NCBI GenBank assembly: GCA_019637815.1
Contig: JAHBUZ010000001.1
Location: 151,865 to 215,864, forward strand
Direction of reading: 5' to 3'
From: Chloroflexota bacterium
Lineage (GTDB): Bacteria; Chloroflexota; Limnocylindria; Limnocylindrales; CSP1-4
DNA: 64,000 nt
Shown: positions 1-22,589 of the stretch, piece by piece
How the letters are laid out: the number at the start of each line of letters is the position of its first letter
How positions within the stretch are numbered: position 1 is the stretch's first letter
Translations under genes and position numbers: made by a program
Notes under the pieces: model-generated
Told to the model about the DNA's origin: nothing
The model's input: only the letters and a program-made list of their open reading frames with translations
Database searches by the model: none

Positions 1-2
1 AG

Positions 3-992
3 CTCGATGGCGCGCAGCACCGCGATGTCGCTGCCCACGTCCGGCATCCGCTGGAGCGCCCACCGGCGGCCGTCCCAGCGGAGCACCATGGGCAGGTATC
101 GACCTCCGGACACCCGATAGCCGACCGCCCAGACGAGGCCCGAGCGCTGGATGATGACCGAGGTGAGGGCACCTTCCCGACCGGCTGCGCCGGTGATGGG
201 CGTGCGCTGCCAGCGTCCCGCCGAGCGGCGTGCGGCATGGGGGCGAGGGATGCCATCGACGGTGGTCCAGCCCACCGCCCAGACACCGCCGTTCGCCTCC
301 GCCGAGATGTCCATGAAGGCACCCGTCGCGCCCGGTGGCACGGGCGGGTCCTCCGATCGCCAGCCGGTCGAGGGAGAGCCACGCATCACCGACGGTCGTT
401 GTCCGCCCCGCGTGCTGTGGTAGCCGACGGCCCAGATGTCCTGGGCCGTGCGTGCGTCCATGCCCGTGAGGACGCCCACGCGCCGACCCGCTCGGCCGAG
501 GTCGACGCGGCGCCAGCGACCGGCGGACCAGCGCATCACCTGTGGTCGATACAGCCCATCCACGGTGCGGTAGCCCGCCGCCCAGAGCTGTCCCTCCGGG
601 CTGCGGTCCATCGCGAACAGGGCCTGCTCGCCACCCCGGTCCGCGACCGGGACCTCGCGCCACGCCGTCCCGTCCCAGCGTGCGGCCACGATCGACCGCG
701 CGTCCTCGGAGATCGAGCGCATGCCCACGGCCCACGCCTGTGGACCGGCCGTGACCACGGAGTTGAGCGTCGTCCGCTGGAACGAGCGGTCGAAGTGCGA
801 GGGACCCTGCGGGCACGCCTCGAGGACGGTGTCGCCCGTCACGACCGTTCCGTCGGTGTCCGGCAACGCTGCCGCGACCGGGCCCGTGGCGGTCAGGGGC
901 GCGGCGAGACACATCACCAGGGCCAGCCGGGCGAGGAAGGCGGGGGTCCGACGGGATGGGTCGGGCCGATGGCGCGTGCCCTGATGACGCAT
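3..992 (-). CDS. Secreted beta-propeller-like repeat protein (runs off the left edge; not in ORF track)
   Basis: Hand translation from ATG at 992 is open to the window edge. It has a signal-peptide-like N-terminus (FLARLALVMCLAAPLTATGPVAAA) and five W-A-[VA]-G repeats (AWAVGM, LWAAGY, IWAVGY, VWAVGW, VWAVGY). Confidence 0.7.
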   Translation of the reverse strand, partial: MRHQGTRHRPDPSRRTPAFLARLALVMCLAAPLTATGPVAAALPDTDGTVVTGDTVLEACPQGPSHFDRSFQRTTLNSVVTAGPQAWAVGMRSISEDARSIVAARWDGTAWREVPVADRGGEQALFAMDRSPEGQLWAAGYRTVDGLYRPQVMRWSAGRWRRVDLGRAGRRVGVLTGMDARTAQDIWAVGYHSTRGGQRPSVMRGSPSTGWRSEDPPVPPGATGAFMDISAEANGGVWAVGWTTVDGIPRPHAARRSAGRWQRTPITGAAGREGALTSVIIQRSGLVWAVGYRVSGGRYLPMVLRWDGRRWALQRMPDVGSDIAVLRAIE

Positions 993-1215
993 CAGGGGCG
1001 GCAGAGTGACACGGATCGGACTGGGGCCTCGTTCGGGCAGGACGACGCAGGCCGCCTCCCTCCTGCGTCCCGCACCAGGGCGCAGGATACCCGCGGCCGG
1101 TGATCCGCGCCGAGGACCGGGCCCATCGCACTGACGATCGAGGGACTTACGGTGTACGCTCCGGGTCGTGGACACGCACGCCAGATCGGCGTTCGTCACA
1201 CCCTGGGAGGACACG

Positions 1216-1659
1216 ATGGCCGGTGATTGGGCAGCGATGGAGCAGGACCTGTACACGCAGGTGCGGAGCGGTGATGGGAGCATCACGCGCGGTTTCTTCA
1301 CGGGACGACAGGTGCTGTTGCTGACCACGATCGGCGCGAAGTCGGGCGAGCCGCGCACGACACCCCTCGTCTACTCCCACGAAGGCGGGAAGGTCGTGGT
1401 CATCGCCTCGGCAGCTGGCTCGCCGACACATCCCGCGTGGTACCTGAACATCCTCCAGGACCCCATCGTGACCGTCGAGGCAGCCGGGGAGACCTACCGG
1501 GCACGTGCCGTCGTGGTCGCGGACGCGGCGGAGCGCCGACGCATCTACGACCAGCATGCGGAGCTCCACGATTCGTTCACGGAGTACGAGGCCCAGGCGG
1601 GTGACCGGGTCATCCCGGTGATCCTGCTCGAGCGACTGCCGGCGGACGCCGCGAGCTGA
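1216..1659 (+). CDS. Deazaflavin (F420)-dependent nitroreductase family protein (Ddn-like)
   Basis: LLLTTIGAKSGEPRTTPL, VIASAAGSPTHPAWYLNI and R-VIPV motifs. Start placed at ATG 1216 behind GGAGG. Confidence 0.85.
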   Translation: MAGDWAAMEQDLYTQVRSGDGSITRGFFTGRQVLLLTTIGAKSGEPRTTPLVYSHEGGKVVVIASAAGSPTHPAWYLNILQDPIVTVEAAGETYRARAVVVADAAERRRIYDQHAELHDSFTEYEAQAGDRVIPVILLERLPADAAS

Positions 1660-1704
1660 CCTGGATGGCCGGGGCGCGACACCCCGGCCGACACCCTCGC
1701 CGGA

Positions 1705-2538
1705 TCAGCGCTCGTCGGGCAGCAGCGGTCGGATGACCAGCTCCACGGCACCACCGTGGCCGTCGGCATAGACCAGGCCCAGGACGCCGCCATTCGGGAC
1801 CGGGATGAGCTCGGCCACCTGGTCGGAGGTGAGCACGGCCTGGGGGACCCACCCGTCGTCCGGCGTCACGAAGTCGTCCATGGGCACGGACAAGCGCCAC
1901 TCGGCGGCAAGGCCGATCTCCTGGACCGCCGTCGGGACCAGCATGCCCAGGTAGGCGTCGGGGGCATATGTCTCGGTGGTGAGGCCGTGCTCGCCCGCCC
2001 ATGACTCGAAGTCCGCGAGGCTGGCAGCCAGCGTCGAAAGGGCGGTGAGCGCCGGATCCTGCGGGCTGTCGGGTCGCTCGAAGCCAAGGGCGTAGATGGA
2101 GACCGTGCGCTGGTCGGTCCCATCATCGAAGGTGAACGTCGTGGTGGGGGCATCCGCGACCACCGACTCGAGGCCGCTCGGCCCGACGGTCATGATCGGG
2201 TCATGGACGGCGGCCAGGAACTGGCTCGTCATCTCCTCGTCGAGATGCGTCACGCGGAATGCCGGCGGTGTCTCCCACGTCTGGCCCTCCAGCCATGGTC
2301 CGCGGTAGATCGCGGTGCCGTCGGCGTAGAGCGTGAAGGAGGGCATCTCCATGAGCGCGATCGACTGGGGCACGAAACCGCCCCCGACCTCCATCCGGAG
2401 CGCCACGGCCGTCGGCTCCGGACCCGGCGAGGGCTCCGCTGCCATCGCGCTCACGGGCACCGCGGCGAGGACCGCCACTGCGAGACCGATGGTGCGACCG
2501 GCACGCGGCCGAACGGGGTGGCGAGGATCGATGGACAT
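1705..2538 (-). CDS. Secreted hypothetical protein
   Basis: GGAG SD before ATG 2538, and a signal-peptide-like segment (IGLAVAVLAAVPVSAMA). No family recognised. Confidence 0.65.
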   Translation of the reverse strand: MSIDPRHPVRPRAGRTIGLAVAVLAAVPVSAMAAEPSPGPEPTAVALRMEVGGGFVPQSIALMEMPSFTLYADGTAIYRGPWLEGQTWETPPAFRVTHLDEEMTSQFLAAVHDPIMTVGPSGLESVVADAPTTTFTFDDGTDQRTVSIYALGFERPDSPQDPALTALSTLAASLADFESWAGEHGLTTETYAPDAYLGMLVPTAVQEIGLAAEWRLSVPMDDFVTPDDGWVPQAVLTSDQVAELIPVPNGGVLGLVYADGHGGAVELVIRPLLPDER

Positions 2539-2735
2539 GGGTGACGCTCCAGACAGGGACGCGGATGCGGGAGGCGCTGCGTCGACTGGGTGACCGGACG
2601 CCCGGACGCGCTCAGCGGTTCCCTCGAAAGGGGACCTTGGGGGCGAAGCCACACCCGCGGACGACCGGACCGATGATTCCCCGATGATGGCTGGGTCTGA
2701 ACCTCCAGGGACGACTCCGGGGTGAGCGCCCCGAC

Positions 2736-3689
2736 ATGACACGGAGGTCGACGATGGACGGACGGACAGGCATCGCCCTGCTCGGAGCGGTCGTGATATC
2801 CCTGGCGCCCGGTGTTGCCGTGGCGCAGGAAGGCTCAGCGGGCCCTGGCTCGCCGGCCACGCCGAGCGTGTCGTCGCTCGTCACACCGGGGAGCGGCACC
2901 GCATCCGTGAACGGCCTGGAGATGTACTACGAGGTCCACGGGACGGGCGAGCCACTCGTGCTCCTCCACGGGGCGCTCGTGGGCATCGACCTCTCCTGGG
3001 GTCAGCTCATGCCCATGCTCGCCGAGACGCGCCAGGTCATCGCCGTCGAGCAGCAGGGCCACTGGCGGACGCCCGACATCGACCGGCCCCTCTCGTACGC
3101 CCAGATGGCCGACGACACCGCGGCCCTCCTGGGCCAGCTGGGTGTCGAGCAGGCGGACATCCTGGGCTACAGCATGGGTGGGACGATCGCGCTCGAGCTC
3201 GCCATCCGGCACCCGGACGCGGTGCGGCGGCTGGTCGTGGTGTCCGCGGGCTTCGCGCCGGAGGGCACCTACCCCATCGTGGTCGCGGACATCGAGCGGC
3301 TGCGCCCGGAGGACCTCATCGGGTCCGGCCTGCCCGAGTCGTATGCGGAGGTGGCGCCCGATCCGGATGGCTGGTCCGGGCTGGTCGAGCGGATCAAGGA
3401 GCTCGAGCGGACCTGGGAGGGCATCCCGGCCGAGCAGGTCGCGGGTATCGAGGCGCCGACGTTGGTGGTCATCGGGGATTCTGACGCGGTGACGCCCGAG
3501 CACGCGGTCCAGCTCTTCCGGCTGCTCGGCGGCGGCGTGTCGGGCGACAACGAGCCCACGGTGCCCGACCGCTTCGCGATCCTGCCGGGCCTGTCGCACG
3601 TGGCCGTGGGCATGACCATCCCGACCTGGTTCCCCCACGTCGTCCAGCCGTTCCTGGACGAGCCCGCAAGCACCGAACGAGGCACATGA
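2736..3689 (+). CDS. Alpha/beta hydrolase with signal peptide
   Basis: PLVLLHG, nucleophile elbow GYSMGG, VIGDSD, and His in GLSH. Confidence 0.9.
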   Translation: MTRRSTMDGRTGIALLGAVVISLAPGVAVAQEGSAGPGSPATPSVSSLVTPGSGTASVNGLEMYYEVHGTGEPLVLLHGALVGIDLSWGQLMPMLAETRQVIAVEQQGHWRTPDIDRPLSYAQMADDTAALLGQLGVEQADILGYSMGGTIALELAIRHPDAVRRLVVVSAGFAPEGTYPIVVADIERLRPEDLIGSGLPESYAEVAPDPDGWSGLVERIKELERTWEGIPAEQVAGIEAPTLVVIGDSDAVTPEHAVQLFRLLGGGVSGDNEPTVPDRFAILPGLSHVAVGMTIPTWFPHVVQPFLDEPASTERGT

Positions 3690-3840
3690 TGTCCCGTGGC
3701 GGCGACATATCCTCGGGTTCGCGGTCCGCGACCTCGACGAGGCACGGACGTTCCATCGGGACACGCTGAGCCTGGTCGGGTGAGAGACGCCTGCCGCCGA
3801 GCGCTGGTTGGGCTGGTCGATCGATGCCCTCGTGATCGAC

Positions 3841-3984
3841 GTCCTGGGTGACGGTCGCGCACCACACTCCCACGCTCACCGTGGGAACCGGGGTCAGGGT
3901 GCAAGCCCCCTTCGAGCTGGAGCCTGATCGAAGCGGCCACATCCCGGGGTGGACCCACAGCGAATGGCGGCAACGCACAGGGAC
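3841..3984 (+). ncRNA. Candidate 6S (SsrS)-like RNA
   Basis: By-eye rod-like fold with a central open region. Ends GUCCUGGGUG and GGCGGCAACGCACAGGGAC, plus an internal GAACC, resemble 6S hallmarks as I recall them. Not tested with a covariance model, and the strand is inferred. Confidence 0.45.
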
Positions 3985-3986
3985 CT

Positions 3987-4358
3987 TGGTGGAGATGGGG
4001 GAGAGTCGAACTCCCCGTCCAGAACCTTCAGCCGGGAACCAACTACGAGCGTGTCCAGCGATTTATCGTCAGATCCGTCATCCGGCACTGGCACCGTGCG
4101 GCGGACCCCAGTCACGTCCCCTTGCGGGCTTTACTCCTGGCTACGCGACGATGACCAGGAGCGCATCCCCGCTGGATGACGCTTCCACAGCCCGCGGGGA
4201 TGAGGCTGCTTCCACGCTCACCTTACTGCCTCAGGCAGCGAGGGCGAGAGCAGGCTGGCGGTTGCCAGTTACTTCGTTTTGCCGCCTTTTTACGAGGCCA
4301 GACGGCACCTCGGCTCGCGCTTCCCGGGGATCCGACCCTGTCGAGACCACGCATCCCC
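3987..4358 (-). ncRNA. ssrA: tmRNA; tag peptide (A)GNRQPALALAA
   Basis: 5' GGGGATG pairs with 3' CATCTCC-ACCA with a G3.U wobble. T-arm GGGAGTTCGACTCTCC. UAACU precedes the resume codon. Tag ORF at 4266..4231 ends ALALAA-TGA. smpB lies nearby. Confidence 0.97.
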
Positions 4359-4367
4359 AAGACCTTG

Positions 4368-4376
4368 ACTATATCA
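4368..4376 (-). promoter_or_regulatory. Extended -10 promoter of ssrA (TGa-TATAGT)
   Basis: TATAGT at 4373..4368 lies 9 nt before the mature tmRNA 5' end. Confidence 0.75.
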
Positions 4377-4378
4377 CT

Positions 4379-4392
4379 CGAACACCTGTTCG
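4379..4392. promoter_or_regulatory. Gram-positive-type LexA/SOS box in ssrA promoter
   Basis: CGAAC-ACCT-GTTCG has perfect palindromic arms matching CGAAC-N4-GTTCG and sits between the -35 and -10 positions. Confidence 0.65.
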
Positions 4393-4416
4393 GCCACCAG
4401 GGTCCCGGCCGACGGC

Positions 4417-4893
4417 TCAGTAGCGGAGGAGCGTCATCACCGCACCGACGCGGTTCAGCATCAGCAGCCCGACGGGCAGCGTGATGAGGAGGGCGCACAG
4501 GGACCACGCGATGCCCATGTAGATGGCACCCAGCCACCAGCCCACGAGCAGGAACCAGGCAGCCCGGAGGATCATCGGCAGCTGGTCGTGGGGCTCACCG
4601 CGGACGTACCGGACGCCATCCCGCACCTCGGTGACATACCCCTCGCTCCGCGGTCGGAGCGTCATGACGGCCGGGATGCGGTCGAACAGGGCGAAGCCGA
4701 CGGGTAGACCGACGATGGTGACGCAGCAGAGGTAGGCGACGGTGATGACGATCGAGCTGAGCCACCAGCCGATGAACAGGAACCAGAGCGCCCGGATGAG
4801 TAGCCCGACGTCGTTCGATTCGCCCGGGAGGACGAGCACGTCCCTCGTGCTCGATGTCTCCTGCTGCTGCGCCTTCGGCCAGGGATAGCTCAT
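4417..4893 (-). CDS. YccF-domain inner membrane protein (duplicated DUF307-like halves)
   Basis: Two repeats of RAxWFLxxGWWL...CxxxITxPxG. Start placed at ATG 4893. Confidence 0.8.
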   Translation of the reverse strand: MSYPWPKAQQQETSSTRDVLVLPGESNDVGLLIRALWFLFIGWWLSSIVITVAYLCCVTIVGLPVGFALFDRIPAVMTLRPRSEGYVTEVRDGVRYVRGEPHDQLPMILRAAWFLLVGWWLGAIYMGIAWSLCALLITLPVGLLMLNRVGAVMTLLRY

Positions 4894-4984
4894 CACTGCG
4901 TCCTTGCTGTTCCCGCGCCGCCGGATCCATCGAGACAGCGAAGGATCCGGGTGCCGACACGCAGCGGATGCCGCATCACGGACC

Positions 4985-5446
4985 TCAGCGGCCGCGTTGG
5001 AGGTCGGCCAGCTCGCGTTGCAGGTCGCGCCGTGCATCCCGCTCCGCGATGTCCTGGCGCCGGTCGTGGAGCTGCTTGCCGCGCGCGACGCCCAGCTGCA
5101 CCTTGGCACGTCCGCGATCGTCGATGTAGAGGCTGAGGGGCACGATGGTCATGCCCTTCGACTTCACGCGGCCGATGAGCTGGTCGATCTGGACGCGATG
5201 AAGGAGCAGCTTCCGATCGCGACGCGCCTCGTGGTTCCATCGATTGCCCCCGGTCCAGGGCGCGATGTTGACGCCCACCAGCCAGGCCTCGCCGTGCTCG
5301 ATGCGGGCGTGGGAGTCCTGGAGATTCACCTTCCCGGCGCGGATGCTCTTGATCTCGGTGCCGCGCAGCACGAGACCCGCCTCGAGGGTGTCCTCGATGG
5401 TGTACTCGTGACGGGCCTTGCGATTGACGGCGATGGTCTCGCCCAT
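4985..5446 (-). CDS. smpB: SsrA-binding protein SmpB
   Basis: IAVNRKARHEY, EAGLVLRGTEIKSIR, RKLLLH, ARGKQLHDRR. AGGAG SD before ATG 5446. Confidence 0.97.
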   Translation of the reverse strand: MGETIAVNRKARHEYTIEDTLEAGLVLRGTEIKSIRAGKVNLQDSHARIEHGEAWLVGVNIAPWTGGNRWNHEARRDRKLLLHRVQIDQLIGRVKSKGMTIVPLSLYIDDRGRAKVQLGVARGKQLHDRRQDIAERDARRDLQRELADLQRGR

Positions 5447-5560
5447 GACTGGACTCCTGGGGACGATGGACCGGCCATGGCCGGACGTCGGATGGTGGTC
5501 GGGCTCGAGCGCCTGCGGCGACACTCGGTCGCGCCGGCGAAGCAGCGTGAGACCCGGACG

Positions 5561-5596
5561 CACGAACGCCGGCCCACAGTGGACCGGCGCTTCGTG
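5561..5596 (-). terminator. Long GC-rich hairpin between the small ORF and smpB (terminator/attenuator-like)
   Basis: CACGAA-CGCCGG-CCCAC / GTGG-A-CCGGCG-C-TTCGTG inverted repeat. No U-tract. Confidence 0.5.
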
Positions 5597-5626
5597 GCTG
5601 GCTTCACCACCCGAAGGGGCTACCGA

Positions 5627-5674
5627 CTAGCGGGCCGCCTCCGAGGTGGTGCAGCGCTGGCTACTGTCACTCAC
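5627..5674 (-). CDS. Small ORF MSDSSQRCTTSEAAR (putative leader/small peptide)
   Basis: TAGGCT -10 at 5708..5703, perfect SD GAAAGGAGGTGAT at 5692..5680, GTG at 5674 and TAG at 5629..5627. Confidence 0.55.
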   Translation of the reverse strand: MSDSSQRCTTSEAAR

Positions 5675-5756
5675 TGCACATCACCTCCTTTCGTTCCCGA
5701 TGAGCCTAGACCGATCCCGCGCTCGATGCAAGAGGCGATCCTGCGCGTCAGGTCCG

Positions 5757-7226
5757 TCAGGGCAGGATGGACGCGTCGGGCGAGCCGCCACCCGGCCCGA
5801 CCGACCCTTCGGGCGACCCGCTGCCCGGTGCCGGCGACGCGCCAGCCGGGACCGTCGAACCGGCCGGCGATGGGCTCGGCGCTGCGGACGTTGACGGGAC
5901 ATCGCCCCGGATCGCGGCCTCGAGGATCGCGAGCGCCCGCTCGAGCTGCGGGTCGATGTCGTCCACACCGCTCGGTGCCACGACCTCGTCCGGTGTGATG
6001 CCCACGCCGTGGATCCAGGTCTGGTCCGGCGTCAGCCAGCGCGCCACGGACAGCCGGAAGCCACCCGCGTCCCCGGACAGCAGGTGCCACTGCTGGACCG
6101 TGCCCTTGCCGAAGGTGGTCTCGCCCACGAGCATGGCGCGATCCGCGTCCTGGAGCGCCCCCGCCACGATCTCGCTGGCGGATGCCGTGCCCCCGTTGAC
6201 GAGCACGACCATGGGCAGCGTCGGATCGGTGGCCAGGCCATCGGGCAGCGCCTCGTGCGGGATGGTCCGACCGTCCGCGTACTGGTCCCAGTAGATGGGC
6301 CCGCTGCCCACGAACTGGCTCGCGATCGACAGCGCGGCTTCCACGAACCCGCCGGGGTCATCACGCAGGTCGAGGATGAACGCACCCGCCCCGGCATCGA
6401 GCTGCTCCTGGAGCCGCGCCCGCAGCTCGTCCGCGGAGCCGCCGCTGAAGCCATCGATGCGCAGGTAGCCGACCGAGCCATCCGCGAGCAGCTCGGCCTG
6501 CACGGCCGGTCGCTGGATGACATCCCGGGTGATCGTCAGCTCCATGGGGCTGCCGTCGCGGACGATCGACAGCCGGACGGTGGTGCCGCGTGGGCCGCGC
6601 ACCCGTTCGACGACCCGGTCCACGGTGGATCCCGTGACGTCCTCGTCGTCCACGGCCACCAGTCGGTCGTTCGCCTCCAGGCCGGCCGCCTCCGCCGGTG
6701 AGCCGTCGATGATGCCCACCACGACCAGGTGGCAGGCCTCGCCGAGCGTGGTGCAGACGCCCCCCGAGTCGTCCAGCGACTGCATGGTGGCGCCGATGCC
6801 CTCGAACGAGCCGCCGATGGAGTCGAGGCTCTGGCGGTACTCGTCGGACGTCATGTACGAGGAGTACGGGTCATCGAGCGCCCCGAACATGCCCTGGATG
6901 GCGCCCTCCACGAGCTCCCTGGGGTCGTACTGGCCGACGTACTCCGTGGAGATCGTGCGGTACGTCTCCCAGAAGGGCTCGAACAGGGCCCGCTCGTCCC
7001 CCCCGGAACCGGGTGCCAGCGACTGCTGGAGGCCGAGCGTGAAGCCGGCCGCGAAGAGCGCCGAGCCCGCGAGCACCGCGACCAGGAACAGGGCAGCGAT
7101 GAGTGACCCGCGACCGGGCGGGGGTGGAGGCTGCCAGGCGGGAGGCTGGGACACCGGACCTGCCGACCAGCCGTTCGCGGGGTCGGGCATGCCGGACGGG
7201 TCGGTCGGCTCGGGCGTCAGGGACAT
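5757..7226 (-). CDS. ctpA: S41 family carboxyl-terminal processing protease (PDZ + S41)
   Basis: DDPYS, GIG, PDZ domain, ILDLRDDPGG, TASASEIVAGALQD, GETTFGKG. N-terminal TM anchor and Pro/Ser-rich tail. Confidence 0.92.
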   Translation of the reverse strand: MSLTPEPTDPSGMPDPANGWSAGPVSQPPAWQPPPPPGRGSLIAALFLVAVLAGSALFAAGFTLGLQQSLAPGSGGDERALFEPFWETYRTISTEYVGQYDPRELVEGAIQGMFGALDDPYSSYMTSDEYRQSLDSIGGSFEGIGATMQSLDDSGGVCTTLGEACHLVVVGIIDGSPAEAAGLEANDRLVAVDDEDVTGSTVDRVVERVRGPRGTTVRLSIVRDGSPMELTITRDVIQRPAVQAELLADGSVGYLRIDGFSGGSADELRARLQEQLDAGAGAFILDLRDDPGGFVEAALSIASQFVGSGPIYWDQYADGRTIPHEALPDGLATDPTLPMVVLVNGGTASASEIVAGALQDADRAMLVGETTFGKGTVQQWHLLSGDAGGFRLSVARWLTPDQTWIHGVGITPDEVVAPSGVDDIDPQLERALAILEAAIRGDVPSTSAAPSPSPAGSTVPAGASPAPGSGSPEGSVGPGGGSPDASILP

Positions 7227-7245
7227 GGCCGGATGCGCCGCGGTC

Positions 7246-8139
7246 TCAGGTGATCTGCCGGAGGTAGGCGCGCACGGAGATCCAGGCGCCCACGCCGCCG
7301 AGACCCAGCCCGGCCAGGAGCACGAGCGAGACCACCTGGAGCGTGAGCGACTGGGAGAAGCCGACGGGCACCTGGCCGGCGATGGCCCGCGCGACCTCCG
7401 AGATCGGTGCGGACGCGGCGAACAGCAGGCCGAGCGTGACGAGCGCCCCCAGGAGGCCCACCAGGAGCCCTTCCACGATGAACGGCCAGCGCACGAAATG
7501 GTCCGACGCGCCCACCAGACGCATGATCTCGATCTCCTGGGCGCGTGACATGACCGCCATCCGGATGGAGTTGACCACGATGAGCAGCACCGTGAGGCCC
7601 ACCAGCAGCAGCACCGCGACCCCCACGGTGCGCAGGGTCGCGGTCACGCTGACGAGGCGGTCGACCGAGCGCAGCGAGTCGATCACCTGGGCGACCACGG
7701 GTCCCCGAGCGCCGTCGAGCACCACCATCACCGGCTCGTACCGTCGCGGATCCACCAGGCGCACGGACAAGCGTGCCGGGAACGGGTTGGTGATGTACCC
7801 CGACAGGTCCTGCTCGCCAGCCTCGGCACGCTGCCGGTTGAACTCGTCGAGCGCCTCCTCCTTGGTCACGTAGGCGACCGAGGCGACCTCCGGGAGCTCC
7901 CGCAGCTCCGTCGCGAGCGCATCGACGCGCTCCTGTGGCGCGCCCTCGGCGAGCTCGGCGCGGATCTCCACCTTCGACTCCACGAAGGCCACGCCCGCCT
8001 GCATCCCGGACAGGACGATGACCAGGCTCGACAGGAGGATGAGCATCATGACCATCGTCACGGTCGCCGCGAGGCTCATGACCCGGTTGCGCCACAGCCC
8101 CTCGAGCGCCTGCCGGAGGGAGAACGCGAAGAGGTGCAT
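7246..8139 (-). CDS. ftsX: Cell division permease FtsX
   Basis: Four-TM FtsX layout with EIEIMRLVGASDHFVRWPFIVEG; follows ftsE. Confidence 0.93.
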   Translation of the reverse strand: MHLFAFSLRQALEGLWRNRVMSLAATVTMVMMLILLSSLVIVLSGMQAGVAFVESKVEIRAELAEGAPQERVDALATELRELPEVASVAYVTKEEALDEFNRQRAEAGEQDLSGYITNPFPARLSVRLVDPRRYEPVMVVLDGARGPVVAQVIDSLRSVDRLVSVTATLRTVGVAVLLLVGLTVLLIVVNSIRMAVMSRAQEIEIMRLVGASDHFVRWPFIVEGLLVGLLGALVTLGLLFAASAPISEVARAIAGQVPVGFSQSLTLQVVSLVLLAGLGLGGVGAWISVRAYLRQIT

Positions 8140-8996
8140 CAGGCGTATTCGCGGTGGTAGCCACCGACCTCGTCGCGGATGATGCGGCCACCCTCCAGCG
8201 CCACGACCCGCTTCCGGAGCGCGGTCACCACCTCGGCGTTGTGGGTCGCCATGAGCACGGTCGTGCCCATCTCGTTGATGCGCAGCAGGAGCTGGATGAT
8301 CTCCCAGCTGATGAGCGGGTCGAGGTTGCCCGTGGGCTCGTCCGCGATGATGAGCTTGGGGTCATGGACCATGGCCCGGGCGATGGCCGCCCGCTGCATC
8401 TCGCCACCCGACAGCTGACCGGGACGCTGGTCCCCCTGCCCGGTGAGCCCGACCAGCGCGATGAGGCGCTCGACGGTCGCCTGGATCTGGCGTCGGGGCG
8501 TGCCCGTCACCTCGAGCGCGAACGCGACGTTCTCACGCACCGTCTTGCGGGGCAGCAACCGGAAGTCCTGGAACACGATGCCGATCCGGCGGCGGAGCTG
8601 TGGCACCTCGTTCCGACGGATCCGGTCCAGGTCGAAGCCGGCGACCATGATCGAGCCGGTCGTCGCGATCTCATCGTGGACGAGCAGCTTGATGAGCGTG
8701 CTCTTGCCGGCCCCCGACGCGCCCACCAGGAACACGAAGTCCCCCTCCGGCACGACCAGGTCGACGTCCACCACGGCCGGTTTGCCATTGGGATAGACCT
8801 TGCCCACCTCGGACAGCTGGATGGCGAGGCGTGGCGGCTGCAGCGGGTGGGCTCGACCACCGGCCATGCCGGGTGCATCGGACCAGGAGTGCGGTGTGCT
8901 CCCGGGTGGCTCCAGCACGGCCGTGCGCACCAGGGGCTCGCGTGGGCCCGGCACGGCGGACAGGCGCATCGCGCCACCGGACAGGGCGTCGCTCAT
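8139..8996 (-). CDS. ftsE: Cell division ATP-binding protein FtsE
   Basis: GASGAGKST, LSGGEMQR, ADEPTGNLD. ATG 8996 sits 7 nt after TGc-TAGGCT (leaderless start). An alternative ATG is at 8867. Confidence 0.93.
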   Translation of the reverse strand: MSDALSGGAMRLSAVPGPREPLVRTAVLEPPGSTPHSWSDAPGMAGGRAHPLQPPRLAIQLSEVGKVYPNGKPAVVDVDLVVPEGDFVFLVGASGAGKSTLIKLLVHDEIATTGSIMVAGFDLDRIRRNEVPQLRRRIGIVFQDFRLLPRKTVRENVAFALEVTGTPRRQIQATVERLIALVGLTGQGDQRPGQLSGGEMQRAAIARAMVHDPKLIIADEPTGNLDPLISWEIIQLLLRINEMGTTVLMATHNAEVVTALRKRVVALEGGRIIRDEVGGYHREYA

Positions 8997-9061
8997 CGGG
9001 CGGAGCCTAGCACCAGCCCTCCCCGGGTGCCGGGGACCGGGCGACCGGTGCGCCGGCGTCC

Positions 9062-9880
9062 TCAGCGGTCCGCGTGGAGCGTGGCGAGCACGGGGTCGTG
9101 CAGCACGCCGTTGCTGGCGAACGCATCGCCGGAGGTCCAGTCCCGACGACCCTGGAGATCGGTCATCCGGCCGCCTGCCTCCTCCACGATCACCCACGGC
9201 GCGGCCACGTCCCAGACATGCAGGTCGCGCTCCATCATCAGCTCCGCGGCACCTTCCGCCACGAGCAGATAGCCCCAGAAGTCGCCGAACGCGCGATCGC
9301 GCCAGACGCTCGTGAGGAGGGACTCGAAGCCGGTCGCGTAGGGCGAGCTGCGCATGTCGAGGATGGAGCGGTAGATGAGCTGGGCCTCCGCGATCGTGGA
9401 GCGATCCGACACGTGGACCCGGCGTGGCTCGGGTGCGCCGGGCTCGGTGACCCACGCCCCGCCACCCCGCCTGGCCCACCATCGACGACCCAGCGCCGGC
9501 GCGCTCACCACGCCCACCAGCAGCTCCCCGGCCCGCTCGGCGGCCAGGAGCGTCGCGAACACGGGCACCCCGCGCATGAAGTTGTGGGTGCCATCGATCG
9601 GATCGACGATCCAGCGGACATCCGCGGTGCTGGGCGCCTCGCCGTACTCCTCGCCCAGGACGCCGTGCGTCGGCAATCGTTGCCCCAGGAGCTCCCGGGT
9701 GTGTCGCTCGATGGCCTGGTCGGCCTCCGTCACGAACGAGCCGTCGTCCTTGGCATGGATCTCCAGCTGGCGATGGAGAGCGCCCATCGAGATGGCATCC
9801 GCGGCATCCGCGATGTCGAGCGCCACGCCGAGCCACGCGTCGAGCTCGGCGTCCGGGTGCTGGGTACCAGGGATGGTCAC
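9062..9880 (-). CDS. hisN: Inositol monophosphatase family protein, probably histidinol-phosphatase
   Basis: VTEADQAIE, GEE, WIVDPIDGTHNF, WDVAA. IMPase-family membership is firm; the substrate is inferred. Confidence 0.75.
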   Translation of the reverse strand: MTIPGTQHPDAELDAWLGVALDIADAADAISMGALHRQLEIHAKDDGSFVTEADQAIERHTRELLGQRLPTHGVLGEEYGEAPSTADVRWIVDPIDGTHNFMRGVPVFATLLAAERAGELLVGVVSAPALGRRWWARRGGGAWVTEPGAPEPRRVHVSDRSTIAEAQLIYRSILDMRSSPYATGFESLLTSVWRDRAFGDFWGYLLVAEGAAELMMERDLHVWDVAAPWVIVEEAGGRMTDLQGRRDWTSGDAFASNGVLHDPVLATLHADR

Positions 9881-9893
9881 GGCCGTCCGGGCG

Positions 9894-11010
9894 TCAGTCG
9901 TCCGTCGCGCCCTGGCTCAGGGTCGCGACGCGCTCCAGCTCCGCATACATGAACCGGTCGAGGTCGCCGTCCAGGACCCCGGAGGTGTCGCTCGTCTCCA
10001 CCTCGGTGCGGTGGTCCTTGACCATCTGGTAGGGGTGCAGCACGTAGCTCCGGATCTGGTTGCCCCAGCCCGCCTCCACGTGCTCGCCCCGGATGGCGGC
10101 GAGCTCCGCCTCCCGCTCGGCGATCTTGCGCTCCAGGAGGCGCGCCTTGAGCACCCGCATGGCGAGCTCCCGGTTCTGGTGCTGGGAGCGCTCGTTCTGG
10201 CTCTGGACCACGATGCCCGTGGGCAGGTGGGTCAGGCGCACCGCGGAATCGGTCTTGTTGACGTGCTGGCCACCGGCGCCCTGGGAGCGGTAGGTGTCGA
10301 CCCGCAGGTCGTCATCGGGGATGTCCTCGACCTCGATGTCGTCGTCCACCTCCGGCAGCACCTCGATGAGCGCGAAGGTGGTGTGGCGTCGCTTCTGGGC
10401 GTCGAAGGGGCTGATGCGCACGAGCCGATGGACGCCCCGCTCGGCACGCAGGAAGCCATACGCGCGGCGCCCGTCGATGTTGATGGTGGCGCTCTTGATG
10501 CCCGCGCCCTCACCCTCGAGCTGGTCCATGATCTCGGTCTTGAAGCGATGTCGCTCCGCCCACCGGAGATACATCCGGAGCAGCATCTGGGCCCAGTCGG
10601 TGGCCTCTGTGCCACCCGCCCCGGCGCTGATGGAGACGATGGCGTTCGACTCGTCGTAGTCGCCCGAGAACAGGAGCGCCAGCCGCTGCTGCTCGTAGTC
10701 GGCCGCGAGCTTCGTGTGCTCCGCGTCCACCTCGGCGGTCATCTCGTCGTCCGCCGCCTCCGCGGCCAGCTCGGCGATCTCCACGAGATCCCGGGCACGG
10801 GACTCCAGGCCCCGCCAGGTGGTGATGTCCTCGCGCAGCACCTCCGCCTCGCGCAGGACCTTCTGTGCCTCGCGCTGGTCGTCCCAGAAGCCGGGCTCGC
10901 TGGCGCGCGTATCGAGCGCCGTCAGGCGCTCCTCCTTGACGGCGAGGTCAAAGACGCCCCGAGGTCGCCGAGATCCGGGTCGCGAGATCGCGGATGGCGT
11001 TCTGGTCCAT
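9894..11010 (-). CDS. prfB: Peptide chain release factor 2, with programmed +1 frameshift (11010..10951 joined to 10949..9894; 371 aa)
   Basis: ATG 11010 gives MDQNAIRDLATRISATSGRL, then CTT-TGA-C, then DLAVKEE in the +1 frame. SPF and GGQ motifs are present. Confidence 0.95.
10947..10960 (-). other. RF2 +1 frameshift site GGGG-CGT-CTT-TGA-C
   Basis: Canonical CTTTGAC preceded by an SD-like GGGG. Confidence 0.92.
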
Positions 11011-11255
11011 CAGCTGCGGGCTCGCATCTCCTGGAGCAGCTGGGGACGGAGCTCCAGGATCCGGAGCGCGGTCTTGCTGCGGGCGACGACGGGGTTCACA
11101 CAGGGGCAGTAGGCGTTGTGCGGGCACGGACCGCAGTCGCCGTCACAGTCCAGCCATGCGGCATAGCTGCACGTGCGGCAATCGCGCTCGCACGCGATCA
11201 GATCGGTGAACGCCTGGTCACCGAACTCCGGATCCGCCGTCGGAAACGGCTTCAC
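11010..11255 (-). CDS. 81-aa cysteine-rich hypothetical protein (two CX3CX2C motifs + CXC)
   Basis: GTG 11255 behind purine-rich GAGAGAGAGGG. The stop overlaps the prfB start (TGATG). Upstream TATACT -10 at 11357..11352. Confidence 0.7.
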   Translation of the reverse strand: MKPFPTADPEFGDQAFTDLIACERDCRTCSYAAWLDCDGDCGPCPHNAYCPCVNPVVARSKTALRILELRPQLLQEMRARS

Positions 11256-11518
11256 GGTTCCCTCTCTCTCCCTCTCGCGGGTCAGTGCGGCTGGGCTTGG
11301 ACCCGCCCTGACCCGTCGTGCGTCGGGCGACCACGCCCGCTGCACCCCCGAAGTATACGAACTTGGCCGACTTGCTCACAAGAGGGCCCTCTCGGCCGGT
11401 TCCCGAGGGTCCCGACCGGGCCGTCGACGCGGTCATGCGGGCATGCGCACCCCGTCCGACGGGTGTCCCGGCGTGGTCGTCGGGCAGGCTCACGGGGTCG
11501 GCCTATACTTCGCTCCCC

Positions 11519-14500
11519 ATGCGCAGCATCCTGGCCCGCCTCATGGGCGGCGGTAACGAAGCCCATCTCTCCAAGCTGCGCCAGATCGTGGCGCAGATCA
11601 ACGAGCTCGAAGCCCACTATCAGGCGCTCACCGACGACCAGATCCGTGAGGAGATGGCCGCTGTGCGTGCCGAGGTGGCCGAGCGTGCCGCCCCGACGCC
11701 GCCCTCCGAGGAGGAGCGCACCCATCCCGAGCGGGAGCGGCGTGCGGACATGCGTCGCGCCCGGGAGAAGCAGGACCTGAAGCGGCTCCAGGACGTCCTG
11801 GACGAGGTGCTGCCGGACGTCTTCGCCGCGGTGCGTGAGATCTCCAGCAGGAAGCTGGCCATGCGCCCGTATGACGTGCAGCTGATGGGTGCCATCGTGC
11901 TCCACCAGGGCCGCATCTCCGAGCAGAAGACGGGCGAGGGCAAGACGCTCGTAGGGCCCATCGCGGCCGCGCTCAACGCGATGTCCGGCCGGGGCGTCCA
12001 CGTGGTCACGGTGAACGACTACCTGGCCAAGCGCGATCCGCAGTGGATGGGACCCATCTTCCATGGGCTCGGCCTGTCGCTGGGCATCATCCAGCACGAC
12101 AGCGCGTTCCTGTTCGACCCGGAGTACCGCCCCTCGGACGAGCGGATGCTGTATCTCCGCCCGGTGCCCCGCAAGGAGGCCTACGCGGCCGACGTCACGT
12201 ACGCCACCAACAACGAGCTGGGCTTCGACTATCTCCGCGACAACATGGTCACGGAGCTCGCCGAGCGGGTCCAGCGAGGGCGCTACTTCGCGATCGTGGA
12301 CGAGGTGGACAACATCCTCATCGACGAGGCGCGCACGCCGCTCATCATCAGCGGCCAGGCGGAGGAGTCGGGGGACCTGTACTACCGGTTCGCACGCCTC
12401 GTGCCGCGGCTGAAGGCACGTCCGGAAGGGGCCGAGGAGGGCGGCGACTACTTCGTCGACCTCAAGGAGCACGCCGTCTCGCCCACCGAGCAGGGCATCG
12501 AGAAGATCGAGCAGCTGCTGGGGGTCGGTGACCTCTTCGACGCCACCGCGGACCCCCGACTCGCGCGCCACTTCGAGCAGGCGCTCCGGGCGCACGCGCT
12601 CTACAAGGTCAACCGGGACTACATCGTCAAGGACGGCGAGATCGTCATCGTGGACGAGTTCACGGGCCGCCAGATGCCCGGCCGGCGATGGTCGGAGGGT
12701 CTCCACCAGGCCATCGAGGCGAAGGAGGGCCTGCGCGTCCAGCGGGAATCGGTGACCCTCGCCACGATCACCTTCCAGAACTACTTCCGGCTCTACGACA
12801 AGCTGGCGGGCATGACGGGCACCGCGATGACCGAGCAGGAGGAGTTCTTCAAGATCTACGGGCTCGAGGTGGTCGCCATCCCGACCCACCGGCCGATGGT
12901 CCGCGAGGACGATGCCGACCTCGTGTTCCGGACCGAGAACGCCAAGTTCGAGGCACTCATCGAGGAGGTCGCCGAGATGCAGGCGGCCGGCAGGCCCATC
13001 CTCGTGGGCACCGTGAGCGTCGAGAAGTCGGAGCTGCTCTCGGACATGCTCACGCGCCGGGGCGTCAAGCACGAGGTCCTGAACGCCAAGTTCCACGAGA
13101 AGGAAGCGCCCATCGTGGCCCAGGCGGGTCGTCTGGGTGCCGTGACCATCGCCACCAACATGGCGGGCCGCGGCACGGACATCAAGCTCGGTGGTGACGC
13201 CGCTGGTCTGGCATCCGAGGCGCTCCATCGTCAGGGTCTCAACCCGACCGAGGTGGAGCCGGCGGTCTACGAGGCGACGCTCGCCCAGGCACGCGCCCAG
13301 GTCGACGCGGAGCACGAGCAGGTGGTCGCGGCGGGTGGCCTCCACATCATCGGCACCGAGCGGCACGACGCCCGACGCATCGACAACCAGCTGCGGGGAC
13401 GCTCCGGTCGCCAGGGTGACCCGGGATCGTCGCGCTTCTACCTGTCCCTCGAGGACACGCTCATGAAGCGCTTCGCGTCCGATCGCGTGACCGCGCTCAT
13501 GGAGCGGCTGGGGCTGGAAGGGGACGTGGCCATCGAGTCACGACTCGTGTCCAAGACCATCGAGAACGCCCAGTCACGCGTCGAGGGCTACAACTTCGAC
13601 ATCCGCAAGCGCGTCGTGGAGTACGACGACGTCATCAACAAGCAGCGCGAGACGATCTACGCGGAGCGCGACAAGGTGCTCCACAACGAGGATCTCGGCG
13701 AGTCCGTCATGGGCTTCATGGAAGGCGAGCTGGACATGCTCGCCGAGCAGTACCTCGGGCCGGTCATGGACGACTGGGACGTCGAGGCGTTCGCCAAGGC
13801 CGTGGCCAGCCTCGGTATCACGGGCGAGGGCATCGATACCGAGTCGCTCGATGAGCTGGAGAGCCGGGACGAGATCGTGGACCGGGTCACGGCGGCTGCG
13901 GAGGCGAACCTCGCCGAGCGACAGACACGCTATGGCGAGCAGACCTGGGCGATGGTCGAGCGACTGGTCCTGCTGCGCTCCATCGACCAGCTGTGGGTGG
14001 ACCACCTGACCGAGCTCGATGACTTCCGCCGGGGCGTGGGTCTCCGTGGCTATGGCGGCACGGATCCGCTCGTGGAGTTCAAGCGCGAGGCGTACAAGCT
14101 GTACGAGGAGCTGCGCGGCTTCATCCGCCACCAGGTGTCCAGCACCATCCTGCGCGTGAACGTCCAGGTCCAGGCGCCCGCGCCGGCCACGCCGCCACCC
14201 GCGCGGACCCTGCCGATGCCCACGCCGCAGCAGATGGCCGTGCTTCGGGCGGCGGCTGCCCAGCGGGCGCTCGCGGCACAACGGGCCGCGGCCTTGGCGG
14301 CGGCGGCGAACGGCAGTCAGCCGGCTGCCGATGGCGCGGACGGGGCGGACGGGGTCGGACCGGCCGAGCCGGTCGATGACGAGGGGCTGGAGCTGACCGC
14401 CGAGGACCTCGCGAGCGTCGATGAGATCGCGGATGACGACGTGCTGCCGGACGGTGCGGCGGAGGACTTCGAGGCCGCGGAGGCGGTCACCGCCGAGGCG

Positions 14501-14689
14501 CAGGCGGCCGTGCTCGCCGGGCTCGGCGGGGGTCGACCACGCCAGATGACGCTCCAGCACGGGGACGATGCCGTCGAGTCCACTGGGGCCGCCAGGCCGG
14601 CGGCCGTGGACACCGGCGCCAAGATCGGCCGGAACGATCCCTGCTACTGCGGGTCGGGGCTGAAGTTCAAGAAGTGCCACGGCAAGTAG
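11519..14689 (+). CDS. secA: Preprotein translocase ATPase SecA with C-terminal SEC-C motif
   Basis: QKTGEGKT, DEVDNILIDEARTPLIISG, IATNMAGRGTDI, QLRGRSGRQGDPG, GRNDPCYCGSGLKFKKCHG. ATG 11519 lies 9 nt after TATACT. Confidence 0.98.
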   Translation: MRSILARLMGGGNEAHLSKLRQIVAQINELEAHYQALTDDQIREEMAAVRAEVAERAAPTPPSEEERTHPERERRADMRRAREKQDLKRLQDVLDEVLPDVFAAVREISSRKLAMRPYDVQLMGAIVLHQGRISEQKTGEGKTLVGPIAAALNAMSGRGVHVVTVNDYLAKRDPQWMGPIFHGLGLSLGIIQHDSAFLFDPEYRPSDERMLYLRPVPRKEAYAADVTYATNNELGFDYLRDNMVTELAERVQRGRYFAIVDEVDNILIDEARTPLIISGQAEESGDLYYRFARLVPRLKARPEGAEEGGDYFVDLKEHAVSPTEQGIEKIEQLLGVGDLFDATADPRLARHFEQALRAHALYKVNRDYIVKDGEIVIVDEFTGRQMPGRRWSEGLHQAIEAKEGLRVQRESVTLATITFQNYFRLYDKLAGMTGTAMTEQEEFFKIYGLEVVAIPTHRPMVREDDADLVFRTENAKFEALIEEVAEMQAAGRPILVGTVSVEKSELLSDMLTRRGVKHEVLNAKFHEKEAPIVAQAGRLGAVTIATNMAGRGTDIKLGGDAAGLASEALHRQGLNPTEVEPAVYEATLAQARAQVDAEHEQVVAAGGLHIIGTERHDARRIDNQLRGRSGRQGDPGSSRFYLSLEDTLMKRFASDRVTALMERLGLEGDVAIESRLVSKTIENAQSRVEGYNFDIRKRVVEYDDVINKQRETIYAERDKVLHNEDLGESVMGFMEGELDMLAEQYLGPVMDDWDVEAFAKAVASLGITGEGIDTESLDELESRDEIVDRVTAAAEANLAERQTRYGEQTWAMVERLVLLRSIDQLWVDHLTELDDFRRGVGLRGYGGTDPLVEFKREAYKLYEELRGFIRHQVSSTILRVNVQVQAPAPATPPPARTLPMPTPQQMAVLRAAAAQRALAAQRAAALAAAANGSQPAADGADGADGVGPAEPVDDEGLELTAEDLASVDEIADDDVLPDGAAEDFEAAEAVTAEAQAAVLAGLGGGRPRQMTLQHGDDAVESTGAARPAAVDTGAKIGRNDPCYCGSGLKFKKCHGK

Positions 14690-14699
14690 ACGCGTAGAC

Positions 14700-14818
14700 G
14701 CCGGGCGCTGGGACGGCCCAGGGCGGCGTTGTCGGCTGCGCGCCGTCGCTCACGCACATGAGTGCGCTCACTCCGGTGCTCGCCTCCGCCTTGCCCTGGA
14801 CGCGTCCGAGCGCCCGGC
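14700..14818. repeat. ~120-nt palindromic element (REP/MITE-like or bidirectional terminator) between convergent genes
   Basis: Nested inverted repeats: GCCGGGCGCTGGGACG (14700-14715) / CGTCCGAGCGCCCGGC (14803-14818), CCAGGGC / GCCCTGG, GCAC / GTGC. Confidence 0.55.
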
Positions 14819-14868
14819 CGACGTCGCGCTCGGCTCGGATGCTCGCGGTCGCTCGGCCGCGGGCCTGC

Positions 14869-15099
14869 TCAGCCCCAGAGGCCGATGCCGTACCCAACCA
14901 CGATGGCGCCGAACGTCATGACGGCGAGGATGACGATGCCCAGCACCGCCAATCGCTTGTCCGGCAGCTCGACCTCGGGGTTCGAGAGCTGCGCAGCGTC
15001 CCAGCGTCGGGAGCGCAGCTGGCGCCGATAGTCATCCTGGGTGACCGGGGAGGGCGTGAGACCGCCCTCGCCATCCGGGCGGTGCAGCTGCATGGTCAT
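14869..15099 (-). CDS. 76-aa single-TM hypothetical membrane protein
   Basis: ATGA overlap with the prs stop; C-terminal hydrophobic helix LAVLGIVILAVMTFGAIVVGYGIGLWG. Confidence 0.7.
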   Translation of the reverse strand: MTMQLHRPDGEGGLTPSPVTQDDYRRQLRSRRWDAAQLSNPEVELPDKRLAVLGIVILAVMTFGAIVVGYGIGLWG

Positions 15100-16205
15100 G
15101 GTCGGGCTCCGGATCCGTCTGTGATGCTCGCCGATGGTACATCGTCGGAGGTGTCGCTCTCGCCCTCGCTCCAGAGGACCATCTCCTGCACCAGCTGGAT
15201 CTCGGACGAGAACAGGGCGCCCACCGACTCACCGCCGTGGATGCGTCGGATGGCCTCCCCGATGAGCGGTGCCACGGACAGCTGGACGATCTGTGGCAAT
15301 CGTTTGTCGACCGGCAGCGGGATGGTGTCCGTGATGACCACCTCGGTGAGGTTCGACGCCGCGATCCGCTCCACGGCGGGGCCTGACAGCACACCGTGGG
15401 TGGCGCACGCGTAGATCTCGTGGACCCCCTCGCGCTCGAGCGCCCGGGTGACCTGCATCAGGGTGCCTGCCGTGTCGACCTCGTCGTCCACCACGATCGC
15501 CCGCTTGCCCCGCACGTCACCGATGACGTTCAGGACCTCGGCACGGTCGTCGTTGTCCATGCGTCGCTTCTCGACGATGGCGAGCGGCGCGTTCACGAGC
15601 TCCGCGAACGTCCGTGCGCGCTTGGCGAAGCCGAGGTCCGTGACCACGACCAGGTTGTCCAGACCCTTGCGGATGAAGTGGTTGCTCAGCAGGTGGACCG
15701 CCGTGAGCTCATCCACGGGGATGTTGAAGAAGCCCTGGATCTGGCCCTGGTGGAGGTCCATGGTGAGCAGGCGGTCCGCCCCTGCCACGCTGATCATGTC
15801 CGCGATGAGGCGCGCCGTGATGGGCACACGCGGCTGGTCCTTCTTGTCCGAGCGCCCGTAGGCGTAGTACGGCACCACGGCGGTGATGCGACCGGCGCTC
15901 GCTCGCTTGAACGCGTCGATCATGATGAGCAGCTCCATGATCGAGGTCTGGACCGGCGAGCAGGTGGGCTGGACGAGGTAGACGTCGCGCTCGCGCACGT
16001 TGTCCAGGATCTTGACGAAGATGTTCTCGTTCGCGAACTCGAACACCTCGCACCGACCCAGGCGCACCCCCAGGTAGAGCCCGATCTTGGCAGCCAGGTC
16101 AGGGTTCGAGTTGCCGCTGTACAGGTCGACCGACTCCGCGGCCCGACCTGCCGCATCCGATCCGAACATCGTCACGCGGCCCGTCTCCAGCGTGTGCACG
16201 GTCAC
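15096..16205 (-). CDS. prs: Ribose-phosphate pyrophosphokinase
   Basis: [41 protein letters not shown]. Confidence 0.96.

Positions 16206-18771: not shown

Positions 18772-18775
<4 letters not shown>
16202..18775 (-). CDS. gyrA: DNA gyrase subunit A
   Basis: [29 protein letters not shown], GyrA-box QARGGKG, C-terminal propeller repeats. Confidence 0.97.

Positions 18776-22589
<3,814 letters not shown>

Follow-up and report, generated by a model that had tools for sequence, protein, structure and literature searches.

What is the conserved unit that stands directly before smpB on this stretch of DNA, and does it take part in setting the expression of the rescue factor encoded behind it? To our knowledge, how bacteria adjust their capacity for ribosome rescue to demand is understood only in special cases, such as that of arfA, which is expressed from a non-stop mRNA. 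In the window, by which we mean the whole stretch of 64,000 nucleotides analysed here, smpB is preceded by a leader that combines promoter elements, a Shine-Dalgarno (SD) sequence complementary to the 16S rRNA tail, a mini-ORF and a GC-rich hairpin (Table 1). The explanation that we favour, with about even confidence, is that this leader is a separately promoted, translated mini-gene RNA at the 5' end of the smpB mRNA, which would sense free ribosomes and set the mRNA of the rescue factor. No description of a leader of smpB or arfB was found in the literature searched, where searching by sequence string returned only papers on 16S primers, and the smpB leader appears to be undescribed.

The locus, its promoter and its linkage to smpB

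The features of the locus are collected in Table 1. The genes ftsX and ftsE lie further upstream of the leader, and the tmRNA gene encodes the tag peptide GNRQPALALAA according to ARAGORN. In other families of the class, the tmRNA gene lies nearer to smpB (for example, in loci L098 and L053), unlike in this genome, where the YccF gene is found between them.

Table 1. Features of the smpB leader and of its neighbourhood, numbered from the first nucleotide of the window
Feature	Position	Strand	Remarks
S41 C-terminal-processing peptidase gene	7226-5757	minus	Pfam PF03572; 5' neighbour of the leader
Leader unit	5731-5562	minus	between the S41 peptidase gene and smpB
-35-like hexamer TTGCAT	5726..5731	minus	TTGC conserved in leaders; seen in the genus alignment
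-10 hexamer TAGGCT (TAnnnT)	5703..5708	minus	17-nt spacer from the -35
13-nt Shine-Dalgarno GAAAGGAGGTGAT	5680..5692	minus	exact complement of the 16S 3' tail
15-codon ORF GTG...TAG	5627..5674	minus	product MSDSSQRCTTSEAAR; GTG 5674-5672, TAG 5629-5627
Anti-SD mimic CTGCAC-CACCTC	5643..5654	minus	codons 7-11; pairs with GAGGTG..GTGCAG of the SD/start (helix P1)
Hairpin P2	5613..5642	minus	stop codon in loop; second GGAGG 5642-5638 with CCTTC 5617-5613
Pseudo-SD CGGGTGGTG	5605..5613	minus	alternative partner of the mimic
GC-rich terminator-like hairpin	5562..5595	minus	16 bp, one bulged G, loop CUG; U-poor tail
Spacer with smpB SD (AGGAG, 5458-5454)	5447..5561	minus	not conserved after the hairpin
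smpB	4985..5446	minus	Pfam SmpB PF01668, 197.5 bits
YccF-domain membrane protein gene	4417-4893	minus	158 aa; PF03733; between smpB and the tmRNA gene
tmRNA gene (ssrA), SmpB partner	3987..4358	minus	Rfam RF00023, 116.9 bits; downstream of smpB

Judged by its sequence, the leader has its own conserved promoter of the form TTGC-17-TAnnnT, located at a fixed distance before the SD. The -10 hexamer, already picked out in the earlier note, is conserved across 179 distinct leaders, with T, A and T at positions -16, -15 and -11 in 144, 148 and 159 of them, respectively. To this can now be added the -35 element, of which the TTGC occupies positions -39 to -36 relative to the G of GAAAGG (T at -39 in 170/179). 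From the position of the conserved -10, transcription would start approximately 3-5 nt before the SD.

When relatives were searched at the DNA level, a unit of approximately 145 nt (window 5699-5554) proved to be conserved within the genus, with 95-69% identity, but its flanks did not. The covariance model built from 20 genus copies gave a full-length match in 144 of the 151 genomes of the order, representing 27/27 genera and including a family whose genomes measure about 1.1 Mb, and short-form model matches were obtained in 169 of the 251 genomes of the class Limnocylindria. In the class families missed by the model, a longer form of the leader, with AGAAAGGAGGTGATGTGGAGTG... and a 28-codon ORF, stands before smpB in 8/8 loci read from eight genomes. 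This long form (L263-L270) displays a 14-nt SD complement, AGAAAGGAGGTGAT, a second GAGGTGATC within the 28-codon ORF, an 11-bp helix formed by CCAAAGACCCA and TGGGTCTTTGG, and a terminator whose U tract, UUCGUUUUC, is better.

There is one leader copy per genome across Limnocylindria, and in 196/196 loci with enough sequence the start of smpB is found on the same strand, 134-353 nt behind the SD. Conservation of the SD-ORF-hairpin unit before smpB in relatives, a point raised by the earlier note, is therefore borne out, in a class across which SmpB itself is approximately 50% identical. In relatives, as few as 18-30 nt can separate the hairpin from the start of smpB, which fits the earlier remark that no separate promoter lies between the two; no promoter-like site, conserved or consensus, was found in this spacer. 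Since spacers of this size leave smpB without room for a promoter of its own, we infer that it is made from the leader promoter by read-through of the hairpin, on which its expression would thus depend.

A leader of the Limnocylindria type (L106, L115, L116, L143 and L156) is also carried by five public MAG records with the titles Angelobacter, Alphaproteobacteria, Zixiibacteriota, Steroidobacteraceae and Saccharimonadales, and an SmpB-like coding start follows it in the four of the five whose downstream sequence sufficed. These taxonomic labels are probably errors.

The Shine-Dalgarno sequence, the mini-ORF and their pairings

The 16S rRNA gene of this genome ends with ...GGATCACCTCCTTTCTAGGG, and GAAAGGAGGTGAT is therefore a perfect complement of the 16S tail, pairing at 13/13 positions with the genome's own 16S end, as had been proposed against the canonical tail. 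The 13-mer occurs twice in the 4.07-Mb, 71% G+C assembly, once in the leader and once as the complement of the 16S gene, and within the genus ACGAAAGGAGGTG is invariant in 20/20 loci. The next-best SDs of the genome, GAAAGGAGGTGAC and GAAAGGAGGTAAT, carry one mismatch each and precede ordinary ATG-led genes at C1:214744 (window ~62880, minus strand) and C34:34452.

Behind the SD, the homologous frame holds an ORF of 13-17 codons in 196/196 leaders, which extends to the relatives the GTG-started, TAG-ended 15-codon ORF first read in the window. It starts with GTG in 168 leaders, ATG in 27 and TTG in 1, and ends with TAG in 121, TAA in 56 and TGA in 19, with the start codon placed 9-11 nt after GGAGG. 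In the comparison of leaders, start codons are exchanged for start codons and stops for stops at the same place, the indel found within the ORF is of 3 nt and in frame, and codon 3 (Asp) varies synonymously at its third position. These swaps, the in-frame indel, the fixed SD spacing and the synonymous variation of Asp3 make it very probable that the mini-ORF is translated.

The conservation of the stop codon bears on a further candidate. In E. coli, the expression of arfA is regulated by trans-translation through its own mRNA (PMC10107115), and the likeness to the present leader lies in the wiring of rescue-factor expression to the state of the rescue system via features of the factor's own mRNA. 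Here, however, an in-frame stop is kept in 196/196 leaders, ahead of the hairpin, and any sensing would fall to an ORF other than the rescue gene. A non-stop mRNA of the arfA type was rejected on account of this stop.

The second half of the mini-ORF contains a segment, CUGCAC-CACCUC, that resembles the 16S tail and can pair with the SD. The resulting helix P1 is recovered by RNAalifold and shows covariation, and an A/G change within it retains pairing (UA to UG). The predicted SD:mimic duplex averages -19.3 kcal/mol, compared with -11.2 kcal/mol in shuffles, and is the stronger of the two in 181/181 leaders; GAAAGG stays unpaired when the mimic pairs with the SD. Further downstream, the pseudo-SD (CGGGUGGU, CGGGUGGUG) offers the mimic another partner, with a duplex of -11.1 kcal/mol against -7.1 kcal/mol in shuffles (stronger in 180/181 leaders), and the most frequent downstream partner of the mimic is CGGGTGGT. 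The SD:mimic and mimic:pseudo-SD pairings are mutually exclusive. In two folds, the pseudo-SD segment had also paired with a CACCACC-like stretch ahead of the SD of smpB; this pairing was rejected, since over 170 leaders it did not exceed chance (-18.7 versus -18.4 kcal/mol).

Between the mimic and the pseudo-SD lies hairpin P2, in which a second GGAGG pairs with CCUUC or CCUCC and pairing is retained across genera despite different sequences. Both of its modelled outer pairs covary, with 15 and 12 cells changed on both sides. The stop codon falls inside a hairpin loop in 126/181 local folds, compared with 37% of shuffles, and a test of contiguous stems around it, a simple one with little discrimination, gave 4.83 versus 4.37 bp. 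The small CC-TTCG-GG hairpin described in the earlier note is not kept as such in relatives: its bases form the 3' strand of the larger hairpin P2, behind which the pseudo-SD follows. The hairpin of approximately 16 bp described alongside it has fared better, as the closing hairpin is conserved and 7/11 of its upper-stem pairs covary. For the unit as a whole, 97.4% of cells pair and 15/27 pairs are changed on both sides in a 53-row alignment, a value reached by 0/500 shuffles, while slid controls paired at 44% or less; these counts lean towards structure because the alignment was fitted to the covariance model.

Similar modules in other lineages

The search was extended to 401 sampled Chloroflexota genomes with the 20-mer ACGAAAGGAGGTGRTGTGCA, allowing one mismatch. 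It is found once per genome in 70 of them, the reversed control giving 0, and outside Limnocylindria it is restricted to two large-genome families and one further genome. The carriers include Dictyobacter aurantiacus, a member of the Ktedonobacteria (L117, ~6255-6500 as oriented). The Ktedonobacteria module (L219-L245) is a stand-alone RNA of approximately 215-270 nt, with a near-consensus TTGACA-17-TAnnnT promoter and an ORF of 23-24 codons that has its stop codon in the loop of a hairpin. It also contains a covarying long-range helix of 12 bp and ends in a canonical U-rich terminator. Most copies are located upstream of a biotin-protein-ligase gene. Because this module is strongly terminated and lies away from smpB, the core role of the module may be independent of smpB.

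A similar arrangement is found in Pseudomonadota. The 14 loci of the CC2171 type that were read (L249-L262) all carry GAAAGGAGGTGATCC or a near variant, followed 6-7 nt after the SD by the start codon of a 14-25-codon ORF beginning with M-S. Four of the 14, all from one proteobacterial order, stand directly upstream of arfB (NCBIfam ArfB), and the remaining loci are not next to rescue genes; no smpB was found near copies of the CC2171 or Ktedonobacteria type. The Rfam family CC2171, classed as a 'non-coding' sRNA, may from its sequence be translated. In the order with the arfB linkage, 76 of the 121 genomes have exactly one copy of the motif, and the loci read there (L272-L301) all carry an 18-codon ORF of the form MSRxxLExxVGT.... 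(30/30), with arfB 174-472 nt downstream in 25/30. In this arfB leader, which likewise looks undescribed, the perfect 15-nt SD GAAAGGAGGTGATCC has as its pairing partner a CACCUCC mimic, directly behind which a canonical terminator follows (for example, L276 1501-1680). The same design thus precedes two different rescue genes in two phyla, smpB in Limnocylindria and arfB in the proteobacterial order, which strengthens the link between the leader and ribosome rescue.

Comparison of the leader with Rfam 15 gave only sub-threshold matches, to the sRNA families CC2171 and Ms_IGR-5. The family RF01867 (CC2171) scored 17.0 bits for the window copy and 16.2 bits for L053, against a gathering score of 75, and RF02471 (Ms_IGR-5), which has a gathering score of 45, was matched by the Limnocylindrus copy alone, at 27.2 bits, the window copy being without a match to this family at E<=10. 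CC2171, known from Caulobacter and other Alphaproteobacteria, shares with the leader the 5' CGAAAGGAGGUGA(UCC), a GTG or ATG start 7 nt behind it, the 14-25-codon M-S ORF, the long-range helix and the terminator, but most of its copies are not next to rescue genes, whereas sub-threshold relatives precede arfB. Homology to CC2171 is not demonstrable beyond the SD, since the SD sequence is fixed by the 16S rRNA. Ms_IGR-5, from Actinobacteria, resembles the leader in its 5' GGAAGGAGGUGGUC, in a hairpin that pairs GGUGGU with a downstream strand, and in its terminator.

These modules lend some weight to an alternative that the earlier note had named in the form of a small mRNA or sRNA with strong ribosome recruitment and that we consider unlikely, namely that the unit is an autonomous small mRNA or dual-function sRNA, which would for instance titrate or test-drive 30S subunits or act in trans, with smpB co-transcribed by leakage through the terminator. 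The Ktedonobacteria copy, with its own promoter and terminator away from smpB, is of this kind, and the CC2171-type loci that were read share the perfect SD and the M-S ORF. CC2171 is moreover a Northern-validated sRNA without a known condition or function (bioRxiv 10.1101/2022.01.24.477521), and for Ms_IGR-5, an sRNA transcription unit, ribosome footprints are reported in mycobacteria (PMC8780764, PMC8079986, PMC4974804, PMC10454040); the literature found on the two gives no function for either. Against this alternative stand the linkage to smpB in 196/196 loci across a deeply diverged class, with minimal spacers, and the independent association with arfB; no trans target is known.

The comparison also raises the possibility, which we put forward tentatively and with more doubt than belief, of a class of RNA modules spread over several phyla that read the 16S tail. 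Such modules would consist of an SD of full complementarity masked by a mimic, together with a mini-ORF, and would be opened by a vacant 30S subunit through toehold displacement. If this were true, the module placed before smpB or arfB would let cells gauge their free functional ribosomes and match rescue capacity to them. The class would then have free-standing members in the orphan sRNAs, i.e., the Ktedonobacteria module, CC2171 and perhaps Ms_IGR-5, and a function would be given to the CC2171-like family and perhaps to Ms_IGR-5. Since there are cultivable groups with the proteobacterial and with the Ktedonobacteria version, the idea is directly testable.

Possible modes of action of the leader

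The conserved features of the leader, i.e., the maximal SD, the mimic of the 16S tail, the pseudo-SD and the mini-ORF that is very probably translated, all concern the contact between SD and anti-SD. In the sensing of free ribosomes that we favour, a free 30S subunit with an intact anti-SD tail would dock on the GAAAGG toehold and displace the mimic from the SD, upon which the mini-ORF would be translated. Occupancy of the SD at the extreme 5' end would then decide the fate of the transcript, and two routes can be envisaged. In the first, the bound 30S subunit would protect the transcript from 5'-end-dependent decay; the genome encodes an RNase J (TIGR00649, 577 bits, cut-off 400), and STAB-SD offers a precedent for 30S binding that blocks RNase J (PMC4113751). 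In the second, occupancy would alter read-through of a leaky hairpin, for which rli80-hflXr is the functional analogue (PMC6310831). Both routes could operate together. As a ribosome sensor, the leader would be a simple and portable device.

Among the nearest known systems is rli80-hflXr, which is grouped with the erm and mef leader-peptide attenuators. In Listeria monocytogenes, rli80-hflXr is a ribosome-dependent attenuator, in which a leader ORF controls a ribosome-recycling factor (PMC6310831). The resemblance to the smpB leader is considerable: in both, a small RNA with a translated ORF of 14-15 codons (translation being very probable here) and a hairpin stands before the gene for a factor that recycles stuck ribosomes, and the downstream gene relies on read-through, the rli80 RNA being constitutively transcribed. 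The smpB leader differs, however, in having neither an antiterminator/anti-antiterminator pair nor an arrest motif of the RLR type, and in its maximal 13-nt 5' SD and internal mimic of the 16S tail, neither of which has been described for rli80.

The earlier note had suggested an attenuator of this kind. In its classical form, pausing of a ribosome within the mini-ORF would, via an antiterminator, keep the terminator from forming, and smpB would rise when translation is perturbed. The short ORF, the stable hairpin and a gene without its own promoter agree with it, as does the use of such a mechanism by rli80-hflXr for a ribosome-splitting factor (PMC6310831). The part of the suggestion that stands is that of a conserved, very probably translated leader with its own predicted promoter, whose hairpin would have to be read through to reach smpB; the classical mechanism with its antiterminator is not supported. 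Complementarity of the upstream RNA to the 5' arm of the hairpin is below chance (-13.8 versus -15.8 kcal/mol in shuffles, and stronger than these in only 29/181 leaders), and in the arfB leaders it is merely marginal (19/30). The closing hairpin also remains in folds in which a ribosome is masked at the start, middle or stop of the ORF. As there is no antiterminator and the hairpin forms wherever the ribosome is placed in the models, the structure offers no path by which ribosome occupancy could act on read-through. Approximately 30 nt separate the stop codon from the stem behind it, the comparison of ORFs between families revealed no conserved arrest motif, and the U tail is poor. We therefore regard a classical ribosome-stalling attenuator as distinctly unlikely.

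The closing hairpin itself has a mean stability of about -26 kcal/mol, the 9 nt behind its stem contain only 2.55 T on average, and its tail TTCGTGCGT lies partly within the lower stem. Canonical U-tract terminators are not above chance in the part of the window that was scanned (positions 1-20000: 3, versus 2.3 in shuffled sequence), and this lineage probably terminates with U-poor hairpins.

It would also suffice for the protection of the smpB transcript if the leader were purely a 5' stabiliser, in which a 30S subunit bound to the 5'-terminal SD kept RNase J away without any sensing. In the STAB-SD of the Bacillus thuringiensis cry3A mRNA (Agaisse & Lereclus 1996), a bound 30S subunit blocks RNase J (PMC4113751). 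STAB-SD likewise relies on an SD-like element that is complementary to the 3' end of the 16S rRNA and close to the 5' end of the mRNA, and in our leader 3-5 nt separate the SD from the predicted 5' end, in a genome that has RNase J. However, STAB-SD starts no translation, whereas here an ORF stands at optimal spacing behind an SD that the mimic would mask, and 196/196 leaders keep its start codon, its frame and its stop. Stabilisation without sensing would leave the mimic/pseudo-SD pair and the stop-codon hairpin unexplained, and we hold it to be very unlikely.

The product of the mini-ORF offers a last set of alternatives. Its sequence diverges widely between families (MIDSTRSCTTSQEMAV, MSSSCHATTEAVR, the 28-residue form and the 23-24-residue Ktedonobacteria forms), while the nucleotides TGCACCACCTC are invariant within the family, third codon positions included. 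With a variable peptide and invariant mimic nucleotides, the passage of the ribosome appears to carry more weight than the peptide itself. A gene for a functional 15-residue micro-protein, which would account for the conserved ORF, for an Asp3 kept through synonymous changes and for the constant 18 codons with a V-G-T core of the arfB-linked ORF, is highly improbable against this divergence between families and this invariance of the mimic. An mRNA for a type I toxin was likewise rejected, such toxins being hydrophobic and membrane-active. The mini-ORF peptides are rich in Ser, Thr, Asp, Glu and Arg and thus hydrophilic, as the peptide in the window had already been described.
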